Origin: Candidatus Aenigmatarchaeota archaeon
GTDB taxonomy: Archaea > Aenigmatarchaeota > Aenigmatarchaeia > GW2011-AR5 > JACRMX01
Length of the DNA stretch: 33,235 bases
Direction: 5' to 3'
Assembly (NCBI GenBank): GCA_016219485.1
Contig: JACRMX010000035.1
Coordinates: 1 to 33,235 of the forward strand
A program made the translations under genes and the position numbers. Positions 1,802-15,147 of this stretch are shown in pieces. Numbering within the stretch: the first letter of the stretch is position 1; each line of letters opens with the position of its first letter. The notes under the pieces were generated by a model. The model saw only the letters and a list, made by a program, of their open reading frames with translations, had not been told where the DNA came from and searched no databases.

Positions 1802-2776
1802 ATGAAAGCAGCTATGGCAAAATGCCCCTTTGGCATTTTCATATTCGATGAACAAGGCAATATTCTTGCCAGCAGGCTCTATCCAAAAGACCCTCAAAAG
1901 GCGCTGGAGCTCTTCGGTGAAAAAACACCAAAAGAACTGCTTGACCAGCTTAAGGGGTATGAGCTAAAAACAAAGAGCAGTGAAGCTGACAGCATGCTAA
2001 GGGTCAGAATCCGCGAAATCGGGCTGGAAATTTTCGGAAGCCATGAGAACATGAACGAGTTTTTATCCGAATTCGGCATGGCGTTTACGCGGTCAAGGAT
2101 GAAAAAGGCTGTTGGAAGGGACAATCTCATTATACAGGCATCAAATGCACTTGATGACATTAATAAAAGCATAAACCTGTTTGTTACACGGCTGAGAGAA
2201 TGGTATGGCTTGCACTATCCTGAGCTCAAGCTGAGCGACAATGAGCTGATAAAAAGCGTATGCGAGCTTGGTGCAAGGGAAAATTTTCCAAAATTCAGGT
2301 CAAGCACAGGCACAGGGCTTGTGCCTGAAGATGAAGAAATTTTAATGAAATATGCTGCTTTAATAGAAAGGATGCATGAGGACAAGAAAGGGCTTGAAAA
2401 ATATGTGAAGGAATCTGTAAGGGAGACGATGCCTAATTTTTCCTCGCTGATAGACCCGCTTCTTGCTGCCCGTATGCTTGCAATGGCAGGCTCAACTGAA
2501 AGACTGGCGAGAATGACAGCGTCCACCATCCAGCTGCTTGGCGCTGAGAAAGCCCTGTTCAGGCACCTGAAACAGAAAGGAAAGCCGCCAAAGTTCGGGC
2601 TGATTTTTTATTCTCCGTATGTGCAAAATGCGCCTGAAGGAAAAAGGGGCAAGATGGCCAGATTTTTGGCATCAAAGCTGATGCTTGCAGCAAGGATTGA
2701 TTATTATTCAAAGCGGGATGAAAGCAGCAGGCTTAAAAAAGAGCTGGAAGAAGAAATAGGAAGGGTGCTTGCATGA
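1802..2776 (+). CDS. nop5: Box C/D sRNP protein Nop5 (Nop56/58 family)
   Basis: RLREWYGLHYPEL, ASTIQLLGAEKALFRHL, PPKFGLIF, RGKMARFLASKL..AARID; start moved to ATG 1802. Confidence 0.93.
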   Translation: MKAAMAKCPFGIFIFDEQGNILASRLYPKDPQKALELFGEKTPKELLDQLKGYELKTKSSEADSMLRVRIREIGLEIFGSHENMNEFLSEFGMAFTRSRMKKAVGRDNLIIQASNALDDINKSINLFVTRLREWYGLHYPELKLSDNELIKSVCELGARENFPKFRSSTGTGLVPEDEEILMKYAALIERMHEDKKGLEKYVKESVRETMPNFSSLIDPLLAARMLAMAGSTERLARMTASTIQLLGAEKALFRHLKQKGKPPKFGLIFYSPYVQNAPEGKRGKMARFLASKLMLAARIDYYSKRDESSRLKKELEEEIGRVLA

Positions 2777-3411
2777 AAGAGATATTTCCAGGCATTTTCA
2801 GAAAAGGAAATGAGCTGTACACTGTTAACGCAGTTCCTGGAAAACGCGTTTATGGTGAAAAATTAACAGATAACTACAGGGAATGGATTCCTGACAGAAG
2901 CAAGCTTGCTTCTGCAATATTATGCGGCCTGAAAGAAATGCCTGTAAAGCCGGGTGCAAAAATAGTTTACCTGGGAGCATCTACAGGAACCACAGTATCG
3001 CATGTTTCTGATATTATCGGCCTAGATGGAATCGTCTATGCAGTTGAGTTCGCAGAGCGCGTAATGAGAAAACTGATGGATGTTGCTAAGGACAGAAAAA
3101 ATATCGTGCCGATACTTGCTGATGCCAGAAAGCCTGAAGATTACAGCTGGGTGGAAGAGTGTGATGTTGTATACGTGGATGTTGCTGACCCGCAGGAGAC
3201 AGAGCTTTCGCTGAGGAACGCCGAAGCATTCCTGAAAAAAGGCGGCTACATGCTTATAGCAGTCAAGTCTCAGAGCATTGATGTTACAAAAGACCCTAAG
3301 CTCGTGTTTAAGGAGGAATCAGAAAAGCTCAAAGACTACAAAATTCTGCAGATAGTTGATATAGACAAATACCAGAAAGACCACGCGCTAGTTGTTGCTG
3401 TCAATCAATAG
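2773..3411 (+). CDS. flpA: Fibrillarin rRNA/tRNA 2'-O-methyltransferase
   Basis: VYGE, YREW.P.RSKL, YLGASTGTTVSHVSD, YAVEF, DARKP; 4-nt ATGA overlap with nop5. Confidence 0.96.
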   Translation: MKEIFPGIFRKGNELYTVNAVPGKRVYGEKLTDNYREWIPDRSKLASAILCGLKEMPVKPGAKIVYLGASTGTTVSHVSDIIGLDGIVYAVEFAERVMRKLMDVAKDRKNIVPILADARKPEDYSWVEECDVVYVDVADPQETELSLRNAEAFLKKGGYMLIAVKSQSIDVTKDPKLVFKEESEKLKDYKILQIVDIDKYQKDHALVVAVNQ

Positions 3412-3464: not shown

Positions 3465-4517
3465 TTATTTTTCTTCCACGATTTTTATCAGCTTTTTCCT
3501 GAACCTTTCCCAGTCTTCTTTTTTTATCGTGGCACCTGCGGCATTAGCGTGCCCGCCTGCCAAGGCGTCCATACCCCTGCCCGCCTTTTTCAGGATGGCA
3601 GATACGTCAAACCTGTTAGTCTGGTTCCTTGCGCTTATTTTTACGCGGCTGCCGACATTCTGGTATACTACCACAAGCTTGTCTGGAAACATTTCGCTTA
3701 TTTTTGTTGAGATAGGAGAGCGAAGATTATAGGCAGACCTGAGGTTATATAGAATAAGGCCGTGCGTTTTTTCCGAAGATTTCTCAAAGTCTACCATGAC
3801 GCCAGCTATTTCTGTTTCCATCTTTCTATAAGACCCGATAATATCTTCATTTTTCATCAGCTCATCCAGCGAGCCTGATCGTTCTATTATCCTGACAATT
3901 TCCTCTGAGCTGAGTTTCTTGGTCGCTCTCGTTGCAGAAATCATGTTCACGGCTTTTCCGAGCTTCGACTCCAGCAAAGGCTCTCCGGATATGCCAGGAT
4001 ATTTATTCTTTATTTCATTTACAATGTCCATGGAATCGGAAAAATCGTAATCCCCTACAATTCCTATTCCTGCAACCCACAGCCGGTTTTTAATATCAGC
4101 CATTTTTGAGCATATTTTGTACACAAGATATGAGCAGGACTGGTAGACGTCTTTTTCAAATCTAGGATTGTAATGAATTATATTTTTCCCATTAACGTTT
4201 CTGCTTATCTGATGATGGTCTATTATAAGGACATTTGAAAATCCGCTTATTTTTTTAAGCGTCTCCATGTCCTGGTCTATTGCAAGATCCAAAAAAATAA
4301 TTTTGGTTGGCAGTGAAAGCTTTATTTTCTGCAGCAAATTCTTGTCTATAGGCATTGGCTGGGATATGAGGTATGCATCCAGGCCCGGCTGCTTTTTCAG
4401 AAAAATGCTCATGAGGGCTGCGGCAGCTATACCGTCGGCATCGTTATGGAAAATAATAATGAGGTTGTCATCGGTTCCGATAGAATTAAGAAAATCTATA
4501 ACCTTGTTCTCGTTCAT
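3465..4517 (-). CDS. DHH/DHHA1 family phosphoesterase (RecJ/NrnA-like)
   Basis: FHNDADG, FLDLA, IIDHH, GIVGD, C-terminal SAR and GGH motifs. Confidence 0.85.
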   Translation of the reverse strand: MNENKVIDFLNSIGTDDNLIIIFHNDADGIAAAALMSIFLKKQPGLDAYLISQPMPIDKNLLQKIKLSLPTKIIFLDLAIDQDMETLKKISGFSNVLIIDHHQISRNVNGKNIIHYNPRFEKDVYQSCSYLVYKICSKMADIKNRLWVAGIGIVGDYDFSDSMDIVNEIKNKYPGISGEPLLESKLGKAVNMISATRATKKLSSEEIVRIIERSGSLDELMKNEDIIGSYRKMETEIAGVMVDFEKSSEKTHGLILYNLRSAYNLRSPISTKISEMFPDKLVVVYQNVGSRVKISARNQTNRFDVSAILKKAGRGMDALAGGHANAAGATIKKEDWERFRKKLIKIVEEK

Positions 4518-4587
4518 TGAATCACCGCAATTTATTAGAAAAGCAATGCTTTTCTATACATGGAAATTCCTTTAGAATTTCCAATGT

Positions 4588-7449
4588 TTACAGCTTTTTA
4601 AGCCAGAATTTCGCTGAAGCCTTTTTAAAAGATACAGCCCCGGATGGGTTTCTCACATCTTTAAATTCTATGCTTTCGGCGCCCACCTTTTCTTTTATCT
4701 CTTTTTCATACTTTTTTAGTTTTTTGTTGTCAACTACCAGCGCTATTTCTTCACTGACAACAAGGCCCATTTCCTTCCTTTTTTTCTGAATCTCCCTTGT
4801 GAGCTCGTGCAGCAACGCCAGATCTTCATCTGCTTTGGTAATAAGCTCCACTGAAATTTCACCTTTCCTCTGTGGAGCCTTTGGCGTCCCAAGCCTGACT
4901 TTTTCCACGTTTGCAAGCCTTTCCACCACAGTGCATAATTTTTTGTCCATCTTCGCATCTGTCGTAAGCCCAGGAAGAGGCCACCGGAGCTTGATATCAT
5001 GGTCTTTTCTTATTGAATTTGTCATCGTTACTATTTCTTCTGCAACTATCATCTGCTCCTCCAATTTTTTATCAATAGCCTTTTCATCATGCTTTGGCCA
5101 TTTTTCCGTATGGACGGATTTTCCATACAAGTCGTAAAAGACATATTCTGCTACGAATGGCGTTATAGGAGCCATGAGTTTTGTCAGCTTGGTTAATGTT
5201 TCGGTTAAGGTAAAATTCACTGCTCTATCATTGCGCTCCCTTACCAGTTTAATATACGTTCTCGAGAGGTCGTTTACTATAAATTCAACAATACATCTTC
5301 CTGCTACATGGAAACGGAAATTCTCAAGGTCGTCTGTAGTTGATTTTATGAGCGAATTGAGTTTTGACAGAATCCACATGTCCTCTATCTGAAGCTCGTA
5401 TGCCTTGGTCTCTAGTTTTGTGTATGTTTTGAAATAGTTGTAAACATTCCAGAATATGTTTACAGACTTTCCGAGCTCCTTTGCGTTTTTCATCGAAAAT
5501 TTTTGCGTTTCCCACGGTGCTATGTCATAGCAGTAATAGAGGCGAAGAAGATCAGCTCCAAGTTTATTGTAAGCATCTTCTGCAGACACAACGTTTCCAA
5601 GGCTCTTGCTCATCTTCTCCCCTTTTTCATCAAGTGTCCACCCGTTCAGGCATACGGTTTCATAAGGCTTTGTGCCGAAAGTAGCCATGCTGCAAAGCAT
5701 CAGCGTATGAAACCATCCCCTTATCTGATCGCTGCTCTCATCTATCAGGTCAACTGTCCAGAGTTTTTCAAATAGCTCCTTGTTTTTTCCAGGGTATCCT
5801 AACGATGCCCATGGCGATATTCCGGAGTCAAACCACACGTCCATTATATCCTTTTCCCTTGCCATTTCACCTCCACATTCGCATTTCAGCGTTATTCTAT
5901 CAACCGTATTTTTATAGAGGTCTTTAACATGGCTGCCGCTTTCCTTTTTCAGCTCATCCAGGCTTTCCATGACCTTTTTTGCCCTGCATGAAGCACATAT
6001 CCAGACTGGAAATGGTATGCCCCAATACCTCTGCCTTGTTACAGCCCAGTCCGGAGATTCTGTTATTAAATTATGATAGCGTTCTCTGGCAAATTCAGGA
6101 AGCCAGTTTACTTTTTTGTTTTCTTTTATTATTTTTTCGCGTATCGTGTCCAGCTTAAGGAACCATTGCCGGCTCATTCTGTAGATAAGCGGAGTTTTGC
6201 ACCTCCAGCAGAGCGGATAGGAGTGCGTTATGCGGCTAGAATGCAGCAGAAGACCTTCTGCTCTGAGCGCGTCTATTATTTTTTCATCAGCGTTCTTGAC
6301 GAACAACCCTGCAAAATCCCCGGCTTCTGCTGTCAGCTCTCCTTTTTCATTTACAGGCGAGGGCTCAGGAAGATTGTAGTACTTTCCTATTTTATTGTCC
6401 ACATCACCATGCCCTGGAGCTGTGTGCACAAGTCCTGTTCCAGTATCCATTGTAACCATATGTCCGAATTCTTCCCCATCTTCTATCATTTTTTTTGCCT
6501 TTATTTTTCCCGCGACTCTCTTCTTCATTACGGGCACTGATAAAAGAACCTGATGCGCATTTTTGTTTTTCTTTAGTTTTTCCTGTTGCGGCACTTTAAG
6601 CACAGGATCATAACCCATTCTTTCAAGCTTCTTTCCAGGAAATTTTTCAAGAATCTGGTAGTCCATTTCTATTTTTTCAAGCTCCTCCAGCCTTTTTTCC
6701 GCGATTATAAGGATGTCATCTCCAACTTTGGCCTTTACATATATTTCATCAGGGTGTGCTACTATTGCAACATTTGCTGCAAGTGTCCATGGGGTTGTTG
6801 TCCATACAAGCAAATATTCTTTTCTCCCTTTAACAGGAAACTTTATGAATATAGAGGGGTCTTCCAGCGTCTTGTACGAGTCGCTGACCTCATATCCTGA
6901 CAGGACAGTTTCACACCGCGGGCACCAGAAACCAGGCTTCTTGCCTTCAATAAGCAGCCCCTTTTCAAACCACTGTTTTACTGTCCACCATCCACTTTCA
7001 AGGTAGTAGTTTTCAGATGTCAGGTATGGTTTAACCCATCCTCGCCAGACACCCATTTTTTTGTATAGATTTATCCATACAGGCTCATTGCCTTTTGCAA
7101 ATTTTTTGCATTCGTCTATAAATTTGTCTATGCCTATTTTTTCTTCTATGTCACTTTTGCTTTTTACACCGAGCCCTTTTTCCACTTCGTTTTCTATAGG
7201 CAGGCCACCACAGTCAAATCCCGGCTGAAACCATACGGAAAAGCCCTGCATGTATTTGAATTTCCCCCATATATCCTTGAATGTGGTTGTCTTTACATGG
7301 CCGACGTGCGGCATGCCGTTTACATAAGGCGGGCCATCAAGAAGATAAAATTTCTTTCTTTTCCAGTCCATCTGGACAATTGTTTCAGCTACCCCCTTTT
7401 CATGCCAGATTTTCTGGACTTTCTTTTCAATTTCTTTGGGATTATACAT
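4588..7449 (-). CDS. ileS: Isoleucine--tRNA ligase
   Basis: DGPPY, HVGH (HIGH), WTTTPWTL, GTGLVHTAPGHG, DW.V.RQRYWG, DQIRGWF, KMSKS; likely start ATG 7449 after GTGAT, overlapping the cimA stop. Confidence 0.95.
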   Translation of the reverse strand: MYNPKEIEKKVQKIWHEKGVAETIVQMDWKRKKFYLLDGPPYVNGMPHVGHVKTTTFKDIWGKFKYMQGFSVWFQPGFDCGGLPIENEVEKGLGVKSKSDIEEKIGIDKFIDECKKFAKGNEPVWINLYKKMGVWRGWVKPYLTSENYYLESGWWTVKQWFEKGLLIEGKKPGFWCPRCETVLSGYEVSDSYKTLEDPSIFIKFPVKGRKEYLLVWTTTPWTLAANVAIVAHPDEIYVKAKVGDDILIIAEKRLEELEKIEMDYQILEKFPGKKLERMGYDPVLKVPQQEKLKKNKNAHQVLLSVPVMKKRVAGKIKAKKMIEDGEEFGHMVTMDTGTGLVHTAPGHGDVDNKIGKYYNLPEPSPVNEKGELTAEAGDFAGLFVKNADEKIIDALRAEGLLLHSSRITHSYPLCWRCKTPLIYRMSRQWFLKLDTIREKIIKENKKVNWLPEFARERYHNLITESPDWAVTRQRYWGIPFPVWICASCRAKKVMESLDELKKESGSHVKDLYKNTVDRITLKCECGGEMAREKDIMDVWFDSGISPWASLGYPGKNKELFEKLWTVDLIDESSDQIRGWFHTLMLCSMATFGTKPYETVCLNGWTLDEKGEKMSKSLGNVVSAEDAYNKLGADLLRLYYCYDIAPWETQKFSMKNAKELGKSVNIFWNVYNYFKTYTKLETKAYELQIEDMWILSKLNSLIKSTTDDLENFRFHVAGRCIVEFIVNDLSRTYIKLVRERNDRAVNFTLTETLTKLTKLMAPITPFVAEYVFYDLYGKSVHTEKWPKHDEKAIDKKLEEQMIVAEEIVTMTNSIRKDHDIKLRWPLPGLTTDAKMDKKLCTVVERLANVEKVRLGTPKAPQRKGEISVELITKADEDLALLHELTREIQKKRKEMGLVVSEEIALVVDNKKLKKYEKEIKEKVGAESIEFKDVRNPSGAVSFKKASAKFWLKKL

Positions 7450-9557: not shown

Positions 9558-10421
9558 GTGAATAAGTTTTTTATCGCAGCTGTTGTGGGCATTTTTTTCG
9601 GATTTGTAGCATACAATATTGCATCCATAACTTCGAAGGAAAATATTTTTCCTGTGAACAATAAACAATATTTTTCAGAGGTGTACTCTGCGATAAACAA
9701 TGCTGAAAAATCTGTTCATATTTCAATGTTTACCATAAAATATTATTCCGAGTATGAGGAGAGCAATGAAAAAAAGCTTCTTGATGCGCTTATCAATGCA
9801 GCCAGGCGCGGGCTGGATGTGAAGGTTATGACAGAAGGCGGCAGCTCCTTTCTTGGAGACGCATTTGTGCTGGAACAGAGGCCTGCATGCGACTACCTTT
9901 CATCTGGCGGAGTTGATGCGCGCTTTGATGCTCCGGACAGGACTACGCATACCAAGCTTGTTATCATTGACAGTAGTGTTATAATTCTGGGTTCGACAAA
10001 CTGGAACTATTATGCACTGGAAGAAAACAACGAAGCCAATATAGTTGTAGAATCACGTGAGGTGGCGGAAAAATATGAGAACTATTTTGAATCGCTGTGG
10101 TCAGAGTCTGTTGGATGCTCTTTTAACACGACAGCAGGCTGCGACTCAGTCAATGCCATTCTGTCGAACAGAAATTACTGCAGCGGAAAGACAGCTTTTG
10201 CAAACGGCACAGCAGAAAATGTTATTTTCAAGGCATCCAAAAAAGGCAACAACTACACGACATTTTCTATTGGCGAAATCAGCGTGTTTTCATGGGGACA
10301 CCCTAATGTAACAGATGGCCAGCTGGTTTTTGTAAAAGGCATATACAGCAAAGAAAAAACCATAGGAGATTATGTTTTTACCGATGAAATAGAGGCAGAG
10401 AATGTAGAAATTCTTCCATGA
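9558..10421 (+). CDS. Membrane-anchored PLD-family (single HKD) nuclease/phosphodiesterase with C-terminal OB-fold-like domain
   Basis: N-terminal hydrophobic helix; HTKLVIID...GSTNW...NNE motif; C-terminal SKKGNNYTTF...V.VKG.Y OB-like pattern. Confidence 0.8.
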   Translation: MNKFFIAAVVGIFFGFVAYNIASITSKENIFPVNNKQYFSEVYSAINNAEKSVHISMFTIKYYSEYEESNEKKLLDALINAARRGLDVKVMTEGGSSFLGDAFVLEQRPACDYLSSGGVDARFDAPDRTTHTKLVIIDSSVIILGSTNWNYYALEENNEANIVVESREVAEKYENYFESLWSESVGCSFNTTAGCDSVNAILSNRNYCSGKTAFANGTAENVIFKASKKGNNYTTFSIGEISVFSWGHPNVTDGQLVFVKGIYSKEKTIGDYVFTDEIEAENVEILP

Positions 10422-10430
10422 AAAGATCGG

Positions 10431-10552
10431 GAGTTTTGAAAGATCCTATCATTTAGCTTGAAGAGAATTGAAGAGTTCTTAAGGAATTTGCTTGTATTGT
10501 TAGAAGGGTTTTTTCTCCTTCCCCTCGATATTTAGGGGAAAGAGAAAAAACC
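10431..10552 (+). repeat. Intergenic palindromic repeat, copy 3 (left part; interrupted by IS6 element)
   Basis: GAGTTTTGAAAGATCCTATC...TTTTTTCTCCTTCCCCTC...AGGGGAAAGAGAAAAAACC followed directly by the IS6 TIR. Confidence 0.85.
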
Positions 10553-10627
10553 GGTTTTGTAACGTCTTAGGTTGGTAAAAATATATGATTTTTGAAAGTT
10601 TAAGAATAGCTGAAAATAAGTATATTT

Positions 10628-10876
10628 GTGAGCCTTTCGAAACAACTTTCAGAAAAAGCAAAGGAATTGTATGCAATTATAATTATCGCTGTAGTAGTTT
10701 TTGGTGCGGTTTCTTATTTCATAAAAGACATAAATTTAGCAAGTGTTTCCACTTTATTGGTTATCATTATAATGATATTGTGGGTTCATAATGATGATAT
10801 AGACAAAATTAAGAAAGAATTAGACATCAATGGCAATGAAAATAAACGGTCTAAAGGATATAAGAGGCGAAAATAA
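10628..10876 (+). CDS. Small hypothetical membrane protein (2 TM), IS6 passenger
   Basis: Two hydrophobic stretches and a basic tail; inside the TIRs. Confidence 0.5.
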   Translation: MSLSKQLSEKAKELYAIIIIAVVVFGAVSYFIKDINLASVSTLLVIIIMILWVHNDDIDKIKKELDINGNENKRSKGYKRRK

Positions 10877-11011
10877 ATGATTAATATGTTAATTCATCTT
10901 TTTGGATTATATAAAACGAGAAAAGGTTACTCAAAAGGACAAATTAATGTAGTTATAATAATTATCTTATTTTTATTGCTTCTCTTATTTATTTTGACAA
11001 GTAGACGATAA
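10877..11011 (+). CDS. Possible 44-aa hydrophobic peptide (KGQ + hydrophobic helix)
   Basis: MINMLIHLFGLYKTRKGYSKGQINVVIIIILFLLLLLFILTSRR*; begins right after previous stop; overlaps transposase 3' end on opposite strand. Confidence 0.3.
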   Translation: MINMLIHLFGLYKTRKGYSKGQINVVIIIILFLLLLLFILTSRR

Positions 11012-11915
11012 TTTTATTTTGCTTCTATAAATCAAATTCAACCATTTCTCTTTGCCTAAATTAAGCTCTACTCCAGCCTTCTGTGCAGGTATCATATCTA
11101 TGCCCTGATGCACCCGCAGAAAGTTATACCATATAACAAACATCTCCAAAATTTGCTCTGCTGATTTGGAATTCTTGAAGCCACGCATAACTTTAACCCG
11201 TTCTCTGATAGTTCCCTGTATGCGTTCTATCATGTTGTTGCGGTAATCGTGCCTATCAATTATGCGGATATGCTGGACATTATCTTTTGGCACCCTGTTA
11301 GAATACCAAGTTTTAGGTATGGTGTTCATGTAAGCAGGTAATCCATCAGTAAAAACATATATAGGCTTTTCTGCTCTTTGTCTGGTTTTTCTGAATAAAC
11401 CCTTAGCACCATCCAATCCCTTTTCTTTGGCATAATGTGTAGCGACCAGAAACCTTGTTTCTTTGTCTATCAAAGCAAAAAGGTAGTGTTGTTCTTTGTT
11501 ACATTTGATATATATTTCGTCAGCATGATAAACACCCGAAAGGCTGAGATTTAACGAGCTGATGAAAGGCTTTATTGTCATAACGTATCTGCGTATCCAT
11601 CTCAGAATACTCATGTGGCTTACTTCTTTATCACTGAATTGATTTACATGAGTTGCCACTTTTCTCAAACTCATGCCATTCATGTAGAGGTCAAGACATG
11701 CTGTTATCATTTCACGCTTCTTTTTGCATTTCATGAAGCCATCATCAACCACGAAGGTTTCCTTACAGTTGTTGCACTTGTATCTTCTCTTCTTTGTTGT
11801 GCAGTTGTAACGAAAACCCCATCTTATTTATTATTTCTTCACTTTGACATTTCGGACACTTCTCTGGTGCAAAATAGCTTTCGTCTTTATAACCTCTTTT
11901 TGTTTTAGTTTTCAT
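10985..11915 (-). pseudogene. IS6-family DDE transposase with N-terminal Zn ribbon, frameshifted near 11826-11833
   Basis: HADE / FTDG / NNMIER DDE triad, HTH GMSLRKV...ILRWI; N-terminus MKTK...CPKC..EEII joins RWGFRYN...YKCNNC only if a 4-nt AATA duplication is removed. Confidence 0.82.
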
Positions 11916-11930
11916 GTTTAACATTTCTAT

Positions 11931-11974
11931 TGTATTAATGTATTAGTTAATACATACATACGAAACTTTAAATA
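11931..11974. promoter_or_regulatory. Divergent promoter/operator between transposase and RHH-MTase
   Basis: ATGTATTA-GT-TAATACAT palindrome (11938-11955), further TGTATTA/TAATACA copies, TTTAAATA box at 11967-11974. Confidence 0.55.
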
Positions 11975-11997
11975 CTTTACTACAGTAATACATTACT

Positions 11998-12153
11998 ATG
12001 TCAGAGGCTAATTCTAACAACAGGGAAACAACAAGCATACGTATTGACCCAAAGCTGTGGAAAGAGGCAAAAATGAAGGCATTAGAAAAAGACATGAGTA
12101 TTGGTCAATACATCGAAGAATTGATAATTAAGGATGTCAAGAACAAGAAGTGA
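11998..12153 (+). CDS. Ribbon-helix-helix (CopG/Arc-like) regulator, 51 aa
   Basis: MSEANSNNRETTSIRIDPKLWKEAKMKALEKDMSIGQYIEELIIKDVKNKK*; TSIRID beta ribbon plus two helices; below ORF-track cutoff. Confidence 0.8.
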   Translation: MSEANSNNRETTSIRIDPKLWKEAKMKALEKDMSIGQYIEELIIKDVKNKK

Positions 12154-12158
12154 TATGA

Positions 12159-13064
12159 ATGAAAGAGATACATTTAGATGACAAAGTGAAATTATACTAT
12201 GGTGATGTTTTTGAATGTTTAGAAATCCTGCCCAAAAATACTATTCAAACTATCATAACAAGCCCAACATATTGGGGGAAACGCCAGTTTACAAATGATG
12301 AAAGAGAATTTGGAAAAGAATCACTCGAACAATACATTCATAGATGCGTCAGTCTATTTAGCAATCTTCTTGATTTAATCAAGGAAAACGGTTCTCTGTT
12401 TTTTATAATGCAAGATTCACGCATGGGAAGTGGAATTTCAAGGACACAACATTTTAGCGATAAGTTTTTTCGGGAGCATCCATCATGGAAACGCAATGGT
12501 AATTCTAAAGAAGTACATGGCAACAGAAGTAAGGTAACGGCACATCATAATATTATTAAAAATACTTCATGGTGTGGCATCCCTTTCAAAATTGCTAACG
12601 AACTCGTGGATAAAGGCTATATATGGCGTGATTACATAATTTGGGAAAAACCTAATCCAATGCCAGACAAAATAGTAAATCGAGTACGCCAATCTGCCGA
12701 ATATGTCTTTCACTTTGTCAAAAACAAATCTTACAAATACAATCCTAAAGAGATTTCCGTTATTGGAAAGAGTGGGCGTCCTCGACCCATGAATCAAGTA
12801 TGGACAGAAGCACCAAATCCAGAGGTTTCACATTCGGCTACGTTTTCCCCTGTAGTAGTTGAACGTCTTTTGAAAGCTACCACTGATATTGGAGATTGGG
12901 TATTCGACCCTTTCGTGGGTTCAGGAACGCTTCTAAAGTTATGCTTAAAAAACGACAGACGTTTTATTGGATGTGATATTAATTCAGAATTCACAAGAGT
13001 ATGCAAGAGAATTATTACTTCTTATCAGCCTTTAAGGATTTATTCCCATCTTTCAGACCATTGA
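12159..13064 (+). CDS. Beta-class N4-cytosine/N6-adenine DNA methyltransferase
   Basis: Motif IV TSPTY precedes motif I DPFVGSGT; IIWEKPNPMP, HSATF. Confidence 0.9.
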   Translation: MKEIHLDDKVKLYYGDVFECLEILPKNTIQTIITSPTYWGKRQFTNDEREFGKESLEQYIHRCVSLFSNLLDLIKENGSLFFIMQDSRMGSGISRTQHFSDKFFREHPSWKRNGNSKEVHGNRSKVTAHHNIIKNTSWCGIPFKIANELVDKGYIWRDYIIWEKPNPMPDKIVNRVRQSAEYVFHFVKNKSYKYNPKEISVIGKSGRPRPMNQVWTEAPNPEVSHSATFSPVVVERLLKATTDIGDWVFDPFVGSGTLLKLCLKNDRRFIGCDINSEFTRVCKRIITSYQPLRIYSHLSDH

Positions 13065-13794
13065 TATATTTTGTCAATATTTGTTTCACATAGTTTGGCA
13101 TAAGGATGTGTTTCTTTCTGGCAATGATTTTCAAATTATCATAATCTGATACAAAATGCCCTTTCCAAACAATAGCAAGACGGCGGATGTTTTCTGTAGC
13201 TATATGTTGATGATTTTCAGGACTTGCCCAGTAACAGGTTTTGCAAACATTAGGTTTCTTGCCTTTCCAATTTGAGCAATGCTCACATGACCAAGATTTT
13301 GCCCGATTACAAGATGCACATAATGGCATGAACTCGTCAATTTTTAAAGTTGCAGGCTCACCGCTAATTTCATATGGTATTTTATGGTCAATCTGTAGGT
13401 ATCGTTCTTCATACTGTTGTAAACAAATACTGCAACGAACACCAGCAGAACGAATAACATCTTCCTTGAATTGTTTTGAGAACATTTTTCTTCCTGCAAG
13501 TGTTCCAAGATGCATACTTTCTGGATTTGCAAATCTATATCCGCTTATTTTTCTTCCATCAGAACTCGTTACACGAAACGATTCTATAGGAATTCCAAGT
13601 TCTCTAACATCTCGTATAGCTCTTGATGTATGTCGATAACCATATTTGTTTTGCAAATCATCTGACGTTATTTGACCGTGCTTTAGAATATGGTCTATTA
13701 CTGTCTTTGCTCTTTTTGCTGTAATAGATTTGGCTCGTGCCAGAAGTTTAGAAGTCCAGCCTTCTGGAACATGTGTAGCCTCTTCCTTTCTCAT
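13015..13794 (-). CDS. HNH restriction endonuclease, SphI-like
   Basis: N-terminal wHTH (YGY.H..RAIRDVRELG), CxxC...QIDHKIPY...LCASCNRAKSWSCEHC.NW...C..CYWASPEN, matching R.SphI as I recall it; start set at ATG 13794 (longer ORF runs into the TIR). Confidence 0.8.
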   Translation of the reverse strand: MRKEEATHVPEGWTSKLLARAKSITAKRAKTVIDHILKHGQITSDDLQNKYGYRHTSRAIRDVRELGIPIESFRVTSSDGRKISGYRFANPESMHLGTLAGRKMFSKQFKEDVIRSAGVRCSICLQQYEERYLQIDHKIPYEISGEPATLKIDEFMPLCASCNRAKSWSCEHCSNWKGKKPNVCKTCYWASPENHQHIATENIRRLAIVWKGHFVSDYDNLKIIARKKHILMPNYVKQILTKYINGLKDGNKSLKADKK

Positions 13795-13846
13795 ACTTTT
13801 TATTGTTTTCAGACACTTTAATACCAACCGAAGACGTTACAGAACC

Positions 13847-13903
13847 AAAAAACCGCATGGATATATAGCAGGCTTTCACGCCTTTTTCTGGATATCTTAA
13901 AAC
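13847..13903 (+). repeat. Right remainder of repeat copy 3 after IS6 insertion
   Basis: AAAAAACCG resumes the repeat; GGATATCTTAAAACT is a degenerate complement of the copy's left end GAGTTTTGAAAGATCC. Confidence 0.6.
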
Positions 13904-15147
13904 TATTTTTTTTCTATAATCTCCTTTGCCCTTGAGACAGTTATGTTTTTTTCTTTTATCATCTGCAAAGCTGTTTTGTCAATCTCGCTGCCTTTTGCGC
14001 CTGCCATGACTGCTATATTTTTGGCATGAAGCTCCATGTGCCCGCGTTGTATGCCTTCTGTTGACAGTGCACGCAGCGCTGCAAAGTTTTGTGCAAGTCC
14101 CACTGCTGCTATTATTTCTGCCAGCTCTTTTGCTGATTTGACACCCAGTATCTTCAGCGCAATTTTTGCTATTGGGTTTGTTCTTGTCGTTCCGCCAACT
14201 ATTCCGACAGCCATAGGCAGCTCTATCATTCCAACCAGGTCGCCATCCTTGTTTTTTTCATATGTTGTGAGCGGCTTGTAGCTGCCGATAGAAGCAAATG
14301 CATGCGCTCCGGCTTCAACAGCCCTGAAATCGTTTCCTGTTGCAATAACAACAGCATCTATTCCGTTCATTACGCCTTTGTTGTGCGTTGCACACCGGTA
14401 AATGTCATTTTTGGCAAAATAATAGGCAGCCAGTATTCCGTTTACCGCATCCTCTCCTATAACTTCTTTTTTCCAGACAGCCTTTGCGTGCGCAAGGCGC
14501 CTAGTTGCAAGGTTGCTTATTATTCTTAGTCTTGCTTTTCCACCTGCTAATTCTTCAAGCAGTGGCGTTACAGCCTCGCACATAGTATTTACAGCATTTG
14601 CGCCCATGGCATCCCTTACGTCCACGAGAAGATGGACAATAATCATTTTTCCTATTTCAGTGCTGATAATCTTTACTTCAACGTCCTTTGCTCCTCCGCC
14701 AAAGCTGACAAGAACAGAGTCTTTTTTGTTGCACAATTCAATTATTTTTTCCTTATTTTCCAGAATTTTTTTCCTGGCCTTTTCAGTATCCTTTGCACCT
14801 ACTATCTGAATCTGGCCTATCATTACAGGGTCGTCGCTAGCCGTAACAAATCCACCAGGCCGCGCGAGCTTTGCAGCATAGCTCGCTGCTGCAACTACCG
14901 AAGGCTCTTCTATTGTCATCGGTACCAGCACATCCCTGCCATTTATAATAAAATTTGTTGCGATGCCGACTGGAAGCCCTGTTGTTCCTATAGCGTTTTC
15001 TATCATTCTGTTGGCTGTTTCCATTTCAAGGGCACCTGCTTTTTTAAGCAGCCCAAGCTCTTCATCTGTAAGGCCAGCAAGCTCTTTTAATTTTTTCAGC
15101 CTTTCCTCCAGAGATAGCCTATGAAATCCTGAAATATCAGATCTCAT
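13903..15147 (-). CDS. mvaA: HMG-CoA reductase, class II
   Basis: SGFHRLSLEER, MIEN, EEPSVVAAAS, DAMGAN, ILS/ISNL, THNKG, GND.RA.EA, EGIQRGHM.LH. Confidence 0.93.
   Translation of the reverse strand: MRSDISGFHRLSLEERLKKLKELAGLTDEELGLLKKAGALEMETANRMIENAIGTTGLPVGIATNFIINGRDVLVPMTIEEPSVVAAASYAAKLARPGGFVTASDDPVMIGQIQIVGAKDTEKARKKILENKEKIIELCNKKDSVLVSFGGGAKDVEVKIISTEIGKMIIVHLLVDVRDAMGANAVNTMCEAVTPLLEELAGGKARLRIISNLATRRLAHAKAVWKKEVIGEDAVNGILAAYYFAKNDIYRCATHNKGVMNGIDAVVIATGNDFRAVEAGAHAFASIGSYKPLTTYEKNKDGDLVGMIELPMAVGIVGGTTRTNPIAKIALKILGVKSAKELAEIIAAVGLAQNFAALRALSTEGIQRGHMELHAKNIAVMAGAKGSEIDKTALQMIKEKNITVSRAKEIIEKK

Follow-up and report, generated by a model that had tools for sequence, protein, structure and literature searches.

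A structurally complete, transposase-dead IS6-type element from an aenigmatarchaeon, and a clade of archaeal relatives that carries restriction-modification modules

Background

IS6 elements are textbook minimal insertion sequences, which move other genes only as two-copy composites or as cointegrates, and the transporter IS (tIS) of ISfinder, or mobile insertion cassettes, are exemplified by the cargo-carrying subgroups of IS1595. Here we analyse an element from a contig of Candidatus Aenigmatarchaeota archaeon (JACRMX010000035.1; the whole stretch of 33,235 nucleotides is referred to below as the window), in which an IS6-type transposase gene and a restriction-modification system lie between one pair of terminal inverted repeats (TIRs). 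Two publications describe its closest counterparts. According to the available text of PMC7986276, IS6 members are about 0.8 kb long (at most about 1.7 kb) with one gene, two miniature inverted-repeat transposable elements are recorded, the ends are short with GG tips and a cTGTt motif, a zinc-finger clade (clade h) occurs in Clostridia (e.g. ISCpe7 of Clostridium), and a single cargo-carrying member is listed, ISDsp3, whose sole passenger is a hypothetical gene. From Xanthomonas oryzae and Neisseria gonorrhoeae, Furuta, Abe and Kobayashi (2010; PMC2853133) reported restriction-modification units enclosed by inverted repeats of 26 or 65 bp with 8-bp duplications; one unit has a transposase-like gene, mobilisation in trans was proposed for those without a transposase, and, in the available text, no archaeal case survived the selection that was applied.

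The window's element and its relatives resemble clade h of IS6/IS26 in their IS240-type DDE core with a basic residue after the E, their zinc finger, their 8-bp duplications and their GG/CTGT ends. However, unlike described IS6 members, the elements with a transposase reported here measure 3.3-5.1 kb, restriction-modification, accompanied by additional genes, is present in every full-length member found, and the hosts are DPANN archaea. Given the norm of about 0.8 kb and the one cargo-carrying member in the available text of PMC7986276, this size and this cargo depart from the family definition. With the units of PMC2853133 they share restriction-modification genes inside inverted repeats and an 8-bp duplication, and a transposase-less relative (L018) fits the proposal of trans-mobilisation. 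Those units, in contrast, are isolated bacterial cases without a defined transposase family, and a clade-wide association, cargo exchange on a common backbone and a fixed promoter slot are absent from the available part of that paper. As in tIS, one transposase and its passengers occupy one end pair, and transposase-less derivatives keep the ends and cargo; unlike the tIS of IS1595, the transposase belongs, by the tests reported here, to another family, and the passengers are consistently restriction-modification genes between two proposed backbone promoters.

We found no description in the literature of IS6-family elements with restriction-modification genes, which the supplements of PMC7986276 and PMC2853133 might list, and the available parts of a survey of thaumarchaeal mobile elements (PMC6563490) and of a 2026 census of archaeal IS (PMC13343696) make no mention of them. 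Set against the textbook picture of IS6, this archaeal branch carries its cargo in a single end pair, and that cargo is always restriction-modification among the full-length members found; the regularities of note are the constant presence of cargo, its exchange, a transposase-less derivative and a fixed promoter slot. DPANN archaea have tiny genomes and few known mobile elements; if our reading is correct, these elements would give restriction systems a concrete means of spreading among them. They would also extend the bacterial transposon-like restriction-modification units of 2010 to archaea with a defined transposase, and would offer a compact natural expression cassette for studying how restriction stays silent during establishment in a new host.

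Results and discussion

Structure and boundaries of the element

We consider it very probable that positions 10553-13846 of the window constitute a unit transposon ('transporter IS') of an archaeal IS6 branch with zinc-finger transposases, bearing an exchangeable restriction-modification cassette. The element spans 3294 bp with five to six genes and is a structurally complete, transposase-dead member of an archaeal IS6-type clade hauling restriction-modification modules. Its terminal arms of 25 nt, complementary at 23 positions (92%), are the top inverted repeat of the neighbourhood, and both read GGTT(C/T)TGTAA, thereby combining GG tips with a CTGT motif. A degenerate end pattern matches the two arms and nothing else in the window, with no match in 100 dinucleotide-preserving shuffles; the count remains at two when up to 7 mismatches are allowed, and there is no inner copy of an end beside the transposase gene. 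The exact octamer AAAAAACC directly abuts both arms, and G+C content within the element (0.28-0.38) is lower than that of the flanks (0.39-0.47). Read in the orientation of the transposase, the nuclease-side end is followed by an HNH nuclease gene, a methyltransferase gene convergent with it, a gene for a ribbon-helix-helix (RHH) protein, the transposase gene (divergent from the RHH gene), membrane open reading frames (ORFs) and the far end (Table 1).

The core of the transposase matches the Pfam model DDE_Tnp_IS240 (PF13610; E 5.7e-21, 75.6 bits, cutoff 27), and in an alignment with intact relatives the columns of D144, D202, E243 and R250 are invariant, placing a basic residue seven positions after the E. 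An earlier note, made from the letters of the sequence, had claimed 25-bp TIRs, an exact 8-bp duplication and an IS6-family transposase, all of which hold, IS6 being the best NCBIfam family for an intact relative even at a score below its cutoff (see below). The same note took the locus for a complete single-transposase element; the ends and the insertion footprint agree with this, whereas the autonomy that it implied does not survive, the transposase gene being frameshifted, which had been missed.

The element is inserted into a dispersed repeat that forms a hairpin with 19-nt arms, 95% complementary, and it is the 3' arm that is interrupted. In the source genome (G000; 650 kb in 66 contigs, 75% complete) the 19-nt core of this repeat occurs in 68 copies at up to 2 mismatches. 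The core is followed by GCAT in 16 of the 68 copies, which is also the window's right flank past the second octamer, by GTAT in seven, and by an end of the element in one, the window's own copy. On contig C49 a copy consists of the repeat, the octamer and GCATGGATATAT, the last matching window positions 13855-13866 at 12 of 12 bases. Uninterrupted paralogous copies of the repeat stand in for the empty site and reproduce its expected form; the empty site that the earlier note anticipated is thus represented by paralogues, the search for an orthologous one being considered below. Examples of the repeat are found near positions 7122-7197 of C49 and at window positions 730, 1429 and 27885, often continuing into GCATGG...TTGGAAAAAC. 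A solo nuclease-side end, with 1 mismatch to the family consensus, is also present in the source genome (C40 12229-12253; L024 6230-6254). No transposase or restriction-modification genes adjoin it, a hairpin repeat lies about 85 nt further on, and an earlier element probably left this end behind.

Distribution of related elements

The end pattern occurs in nine of 371 genomes of the phylum, with a reversed-pattern control giving no match in any genome. Searches with the transposase added loci from metagenome-assembled genomes titled Aenigmatarchaeota, Pacearchaeota or 'uncultured archaeon' and from metagenome contigs, while the viral contigs scanned contained no transposase relative. About 170 transposase relatives were found in all, and the family counts given here rest on the loci analysed rather than on all of these. 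The titles of the same-family relative and of other carriers, Aenigmatarchaeota or Pacearchaeota, are in keeping with the DPANN origin proposed from the sequence, and the further prediction that these TIRs delimit variable cargo elsewhere is borne out by DPANN genomes and metagenome contigs in which the same ends enclose an IS6-type transposase and different modules.

Perfect 8-bp duplications flank five of seven complete elements, namely those of the window, L014 (3849 bp, GGTGTGAA), L015 (3526 bp, TAATATTT), L033 (3580 bp, AAGAAAAC) and L018 (1718 bp, CTAAAAAG); the other two complete elements are L020 (5116 bp) and L023 (4218 bp). L018 contains a nuclease, a methyltransferase and an RHH gene without a transposase, its module being 85% and 77% identical to that of L033, and is a non-autonomous derivative. 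In four further loci (L030, L031, L032 and L021) the contig stops short or one end of the element was recognised, the second end of L021 not being found, and L025 is a transposase stub with one end. For L016, L017 and L026 no second end was detected with 7-nt seeds or with up to 8 mismatches, and we treat them as one-ended restriction-modification remnants. The L016 unit (genome G004) has paralogous ORFs of about 108 residues on both sides (334-700 and 2765-3085, both beginning MHALGKT...), which resemble the 'long target duplication' insertions of bacterial restriction-modification systems. In L035 (5258-9192) and L034 (5452-8836), genes for a Bsp6I-like nuclease and a C5 cytosine methyltransferase flank distant transposases (35-36% identity), the genes of L035 lying inside 29-nt inverted repeats that are 97% complementary and 3.9 kb apart. 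Consequently, the association with restriction-modification reaches beyond the close clade.

Exchange of cargo on a common backbone

A methyltransferase gene adjoins the full-length transposase gene at all 12 distinct loci (the window, L014, L015, L020, L021, L023, L030, L031, L032, L033 and the distant L034 and L035). Methyltransferases were called with Pfam, NCBIfam or PADLOC at seven loci, and by BLASTP to those at the rest. The restriction-modification modules at these 12 loci fall into about nine unrelated kinds. Whereas the window encodes an HNH nuclease, the nucleases match TaqI in L021 (E 4.7e-39), MjaI in L032 (E 9.4e-40) and Bsp6I in L034 and L035; those of L018 and L033 have Hpy99I-type His-Me domains, and a fused methylase-specificity enzyme fills the slot in L023. 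The nuclease-side ORFs of L014/L030, L015, L031 and L020 match no Pfam or PADLOC family.

Pairwise comparisons show that backbone and cargo are uncoupled. The transposases of the window and L014 are 88% identical, compared with 28% for their methyltransferases and no match between their nucleases, and at the DNA level similarity between the two is confined to the ends and the transposase gene (window 11016-11924, 83%). The same pattern is repeated between L015 and L021 (transposase 91%, methyltransferase 34%, nuclease without a match) and between L031 and L033 (84%, 27% and again no nuclease match). Between L014 and L030, by comparison, the transposases are 67% identical, the methyltransferases 79% and the nucleases 78%. 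A second slot, from the transposase stop codon to the far end, likewise varies in content between elements, and most of its ORFs match no Pfam or PADLOC family. In L015 this slot encodes an HtrA-like serine protease with a membrane anchor (4448-5401, minus strand), and in L014 (3137-3916) and L033 (7925-8856) it encodes proteins of 259, 184 and 125 residues without an assigned family.

A fixed nuclease slot

The conserved part of the nuclease-side end extends over about 52 nt and comprises the repeat, TTTAAG or TTAAAG at offsets 26-31, the A-rich AACAATAAAAA and then the ATG, a layout that is present in 12 of 12 nuclease-side ends even though the encoded proteins are mutually unrelated. The nuclease ATG falls at offset 53-55 in 11 of these 12 ends (at 53 in the window) and at 59 in L020, where the TATA-like box is shifted equally; the far end has no such conserved extension. 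On the opposite side of the cassette, seven of the 16 loci scanned have an RHH homologue immediately before the methyltransferase start codon (within about a dozen bases, going by ORF coordinates), and the methyltransferases downstream of these homologues are only 20-30% identical. A profile built from the seven RHH sequences recovered no further members in the other nine loci. The RHH gene counts as a semi-conserved part of the family backbone.

We propose that the 27-nt spacer between end repeat and nuclease start codon serves as a built-in promoter for a leaderless nuclease mRNA. What is exchanged would be the nuclease and methyltransferase genes as a convergent pair, placed between two promoters of the backbone. 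Because the slot stays fixed while the restriction system within it differs from relative to relative, the family has the look of a shuttle dedicated to restriction-modification genes. A bolder version of this idea, which we offer tentatively and hold to be rather unlikely in its entirety, is that of a purpose-built shuttle in which a complete archaeal promoter in the element end starts the leaderless mRNA exactly at offset 53-55, the methyltransferase is expressed from the RHH promoter, and unrelated convergent pairs are swapped between the two start codons in the manner of integron cassettes, all under one regulatory circuit. Under this version, the overlap of the transposase-binding end with the nuclease promoter, and the position of RHH operators between the transposase gene and the methyltransferase operon, would mean that transposition, methylation and restriction are regulated together.

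A proposed life history of the element

Mobility, promoter use and enzyme activity are all deduced here from sequence, and the following sequence of events is accordingly a proposal. The backbone would consist of the two 25-nt ends, the transposase gene, the nuclease-side end of about 52 nt with its TATA-like promoter and, at seven of 16 loci, the RHH gene with its promoter. A cassette of two convergent genes, nuclease and methyltransferase, would sit between inward-facing promoters, with the second variable slot beyond the transposase stop codon. An intact transposase, if it behaves as IS26-type enzymes do, would recognise both ends and transfer a copy of the entire unit to another replicon via a cointegrate, which host recombination would presumably resolve, leaving the 8-bp duplication. 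In the case of the window, the unit landed in the 3' arm of the hairpin repeat, between a PLD-like gene and an HMG-CoA reductase gene. The cargo would methylate the host genome and cut unmethylated incoming DNA, and if the element were lost, the nuclease that remained could attack the genome, potentially favouring retention. The transposase gene later gained a one-base insertion, and without a transposase acting in trans the present copy may now be a restriction-modification island fixed in place.

Evidence against this reading, and alternatives

Several observations weigh against our interpretation of the element as a mobile unit of IS6 type with a swappable restriction cargo. Most directly, no orthologous empty site was found in the one same-family genome available or in the contigs of three sequencing runs (Logan contigs of X1, X2 and X3, from a single groundwater study). 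The same-family genome (G001) is from another genus, and its similarity to the window is limited to the transposase gene and the ends, and therefore no comparison of the insertion site is possible there. The run contigs span each junction of the occupied site, and contain neither a joint across the element nor a cointegrate junction, which is not evidence that the empty site is absent. The element is single-copy in the source genome, no second transposase copy occurs in the contigs, and no genome among those searched contains two full copies, a pattern that gives no sign of recent mobility. L020 and L023, two of the seven complete elements, have no matching 8-bp duplication. In six module types the nuclease-side ORFs match no known nuclease family and are called nucleases by position, while promoters, regulation and restriction activity are inferred. 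The two runs that cover the frameshift come from the same study, and one of them may be the source sample. Finally, the IS6 model of NCBIfam (NF033587) scores the transposase of L014, the intact relative used for this scoring, at 112.6 bits, below the curated equivalog cutoff of 125, and the name given by NCBI to a Pacearchaeota relative is 'IS1/IS6 family' transposase.

Among alternative explanations, the one that fares best concerns the role of the cargo rather than its mobility. It holds that restriction-modification here is an addiction module that serves the element by punishing loss of the transposon, antiviral defence being incidental. Post-segregational killing by type II systems is established in bacteria, and the mobility of restriction-modification systems provides context in the available part of PMC2853133. 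The presence of restriction-modification beside 12 of 12 full-length transposases of the clade, its retention in the transposase-less or one-ended forms L018, L016, L017 and L026, and the fact that the window's module has outlived its transposase would all be expected of such a module. However, the sequence fits both addiction and defence, which can hold together, and persistence past the decay of the transposase fits host benefit equally well. We regard addiction as a credible contender, to which we give somewhat less than even weight.

A second alternative is that the window's transposase is still active and the element autonomous, the apparent break being an assembly or sequencing error in a run of T, or else a programmed +1 shift. 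By tblastn with the intact transposase of L014 (315 residues), frame -2 (11942-11784) accounts for residues 4-56 and frame -3 (11827-11012) for residues 42-314, so that the reading frame shifts by one base where four T stand in a row, near 11812-11815. Such a homopolymer is a common site of error, contig depth is low (about 3-4 per contig), and the rest of the gene is intact, the frame -3 part being 88% identical to the L014 protein. Nevertheless, the site is unchanged and ungapped in contigs of two runs (X1 record 5, covering 11561-11886, and X2 record 12, covering 11690-11874). Moreover, all 11 other full-length transposase genes of the family are in a single frame, which argues against a programmed shift as a family trait, and recoding lacks the support of a slippery site or stimulator. 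An active transposase is consequently improbable in our view, and as a result of the frameshift the window's copy is probably immobile.

Still less probable, and doubtful on most of the evidence at hand, is a third alternative, that the element belongs to the IS1 or IS1595 lineage rather than to IS6, which would make its cargo ordinary. An N-terminal zinc finger and 8-bp duplications are features of IS1 and IS1595 as well, and many members of IS1595 carry cargo. In NCBIfam, the zinc-binding domain model of IS1/IS1595 does match the N-terminal domain (E 1.4e-7), as does the model for IS1 the transposase (E 2e-15), in keeping with the double name and the sub-cutoff IS6 score mentioned above. The catalytic core, on the other hand, scores best in IS6 models: in addition to the match to PF13610 above its cutoff, NF033587 is the best transposase family for L014 (E 1.9e-32), its score comparing with 57.3 bits for IS1, for which the cutoff is 100, and an IS1595 transposase is absent among the matches listed. 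The best plasmid matches, at 26-31% identity over query residues 32-305 including the zinc finger, are annotated as IS6 or ISCpe7 in 12 of 12 cases among those listed. We therefore favour placement in IS6, and read the score below the cutoff as indicating a divergent branch of that family.

With respect to the individual features of IS6, the 8-bp direct repeat is present in the window, and the GG tips and CTGT motif agree with the IS6 ends in the available part of PMC7986276, which also includes a zinc-finger clade inside IS6. The 'caaa' motif given in that source was not seen, the ends are 25 nt long as opposed to 15-20 nt, and the organisation of about 0.8 kb with one ORF is replaced by 3294 bp with five to six genes. 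As expected of a transporter IS, the RHH, methyltransferase, nuclease and membrane protein genes lie inside one end pair with one transposase gene. The final alternative, a chance juxtaposition of an ordinary IS and a resident restriction-modification locus within fortuitous inverted repeats, with which the single copy in the source genome would be compatible, is refuted for practical purposes by the end search (two matches in the window at up to 7 mismatches, with no inner copy beside the transposase gene), by the same outer ends enclosing transposase and restriction-modification genes in other genomes with 8-bp duplications of their own, and by the fixed distance of the nuclease ATG from the tip.

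Genes and features of the window element

Table 1 Features of the element and its target in the window (positions are those of the whole stretch)
Feature	Position	Strand	Details and basis
Target hairpin repeat copy	10491-10552	+	Stem 10507-10525 / 10534-10552; last 8 bases are the duplicated target
Left 8-bp target-site duplication, AAAAAACC	10545-10552		Sequence reading
Transposase-distal TIR, GGTTTTGTAACGTCTTAGGTTGGTA	10553-10577	+	Inverted-repeat search
82-residue protein, second cargo slot	10628-10876	+	Two hydrophobic helices, LWVHNDD motif; 4 relatives
Putative hydrophobic ORF, 44 residues	10877-11011	+	Mechanical ORF list; no Pfam match
IS6-type DDE transposase gene, frameshifted	10985-11924	-	Zinc-finger piece 11763-11924 (frame -2); helix-turn-helix and DDE 10985-11827 (frame -3)
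Putative divergent control region, transposase gene / RHH-methyltransferase operon	11925-11997		Sequence and alignment
RHH protein, 51 residues	11998-12153	+	HicB E 1.8e-4; CopG antitoxin E 2.9e-3 (weak)
Beta-class N4/N6 DNA methyltransferase, 301 residues	12159-13064	+	N6_N4_Mtase E 1.3e-38; PADLOC MTase_II PDLC03387 E 2.2e-57
HNH type II restriction endonuclease, 259 residues	13015-13794	-	ATG at 13794; HNH E 7e-7; PADLOC REase_II PDLC03566 E 3.2e-53
Conserved 27-nt spacer, end repeat to nuclease ATG	13795-13821	-	TATA-like TTAAAG at offsets 26-31 and A-rich AACAATAAAAA
Nuclease-side TIR, GGTTCTGTAACGTCTTCGGTTGGTA (minus-strand reading)	13822-13846	-	Inverted-repeat search
Right 8-bp target-site duplication, AAAAAACC	13847-13854		Sequence reading

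The passenger genes proposed in the earlier note were recovered for the most part. An RHH regulator co-oriented with a beta-class methyltransferase is supported by matches that are weak for the former and strong for the latter, and the convergent HNH nuclease by both Pfam and PADLOC (Table 1). With regard to the small membrane ORFs, the one of 82 residues stands, while the one of 44 residues is without support. The former has no Pfam match above cutoff and four relatives of 63-79 residues among 1.84 billion representatives searched, aligned end to end at identities down to 28%; given its two hydrophobic helices, this ORF probably represents a genuine gene.

The control region between the transposase and RHH genes, for which a regulatory function is suggested by its sequence, contains a TATA-like TTTAAATA about 27 nt before the RHH ATG, located between the inverted pair TAATGTATTA / TAATACATTA. 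In an alignment with six other elements the TATA-like block is conserved, whereas the flanking repeats are element-specific. The RHH gene lies 5 nt upstream of the methyltransferase gene, in whose translation motif IV (SPTY, residues 35-38) precedes motif I (FVGSGT), an order that we take to mark the beta class of methyltransferases. The alignment of the nuclease to PDLC03566 spans positions 22-229 of the 235 in the profile. The 4453 homologues of the nuclease, many of them bacterial, are mostly unnamed or named 'HNH endonuclease' or 'McrA', and a sequence search of the PDB for a solved relative returned nothing below E 0.49. These searches thus yielded no named or solved relative that would bear out the SphI-like label of the earlier note. 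Methyltransferase and nuclease genes are separate, adjacent and convergent, as predicted for a type II restriction-modification system. Their 3' ends overlap by 50 nt (13015-13064), which could couple expression of both genes by transcriptional interference.

The genes beside the element are the PLD-like gene at 9558-10421 and, on the minus strand, the HMG-CoA reductase gene at 13903-15147. Run X3, from another sample of the same study, contains contigs 95-99% similar to the RHH and nuclease genes (window 11949-12106 and 13164-13628), with none seen for the transposase; a variant module may be present in another population. In run X1, summed contig depth reaches about 90 at 13202-13342, compared with about 6 over the remainder, and loose ends occur at 13276 and 13314; a small portion of the nuclease gene is similar to something that is abundant in the X1 sample.

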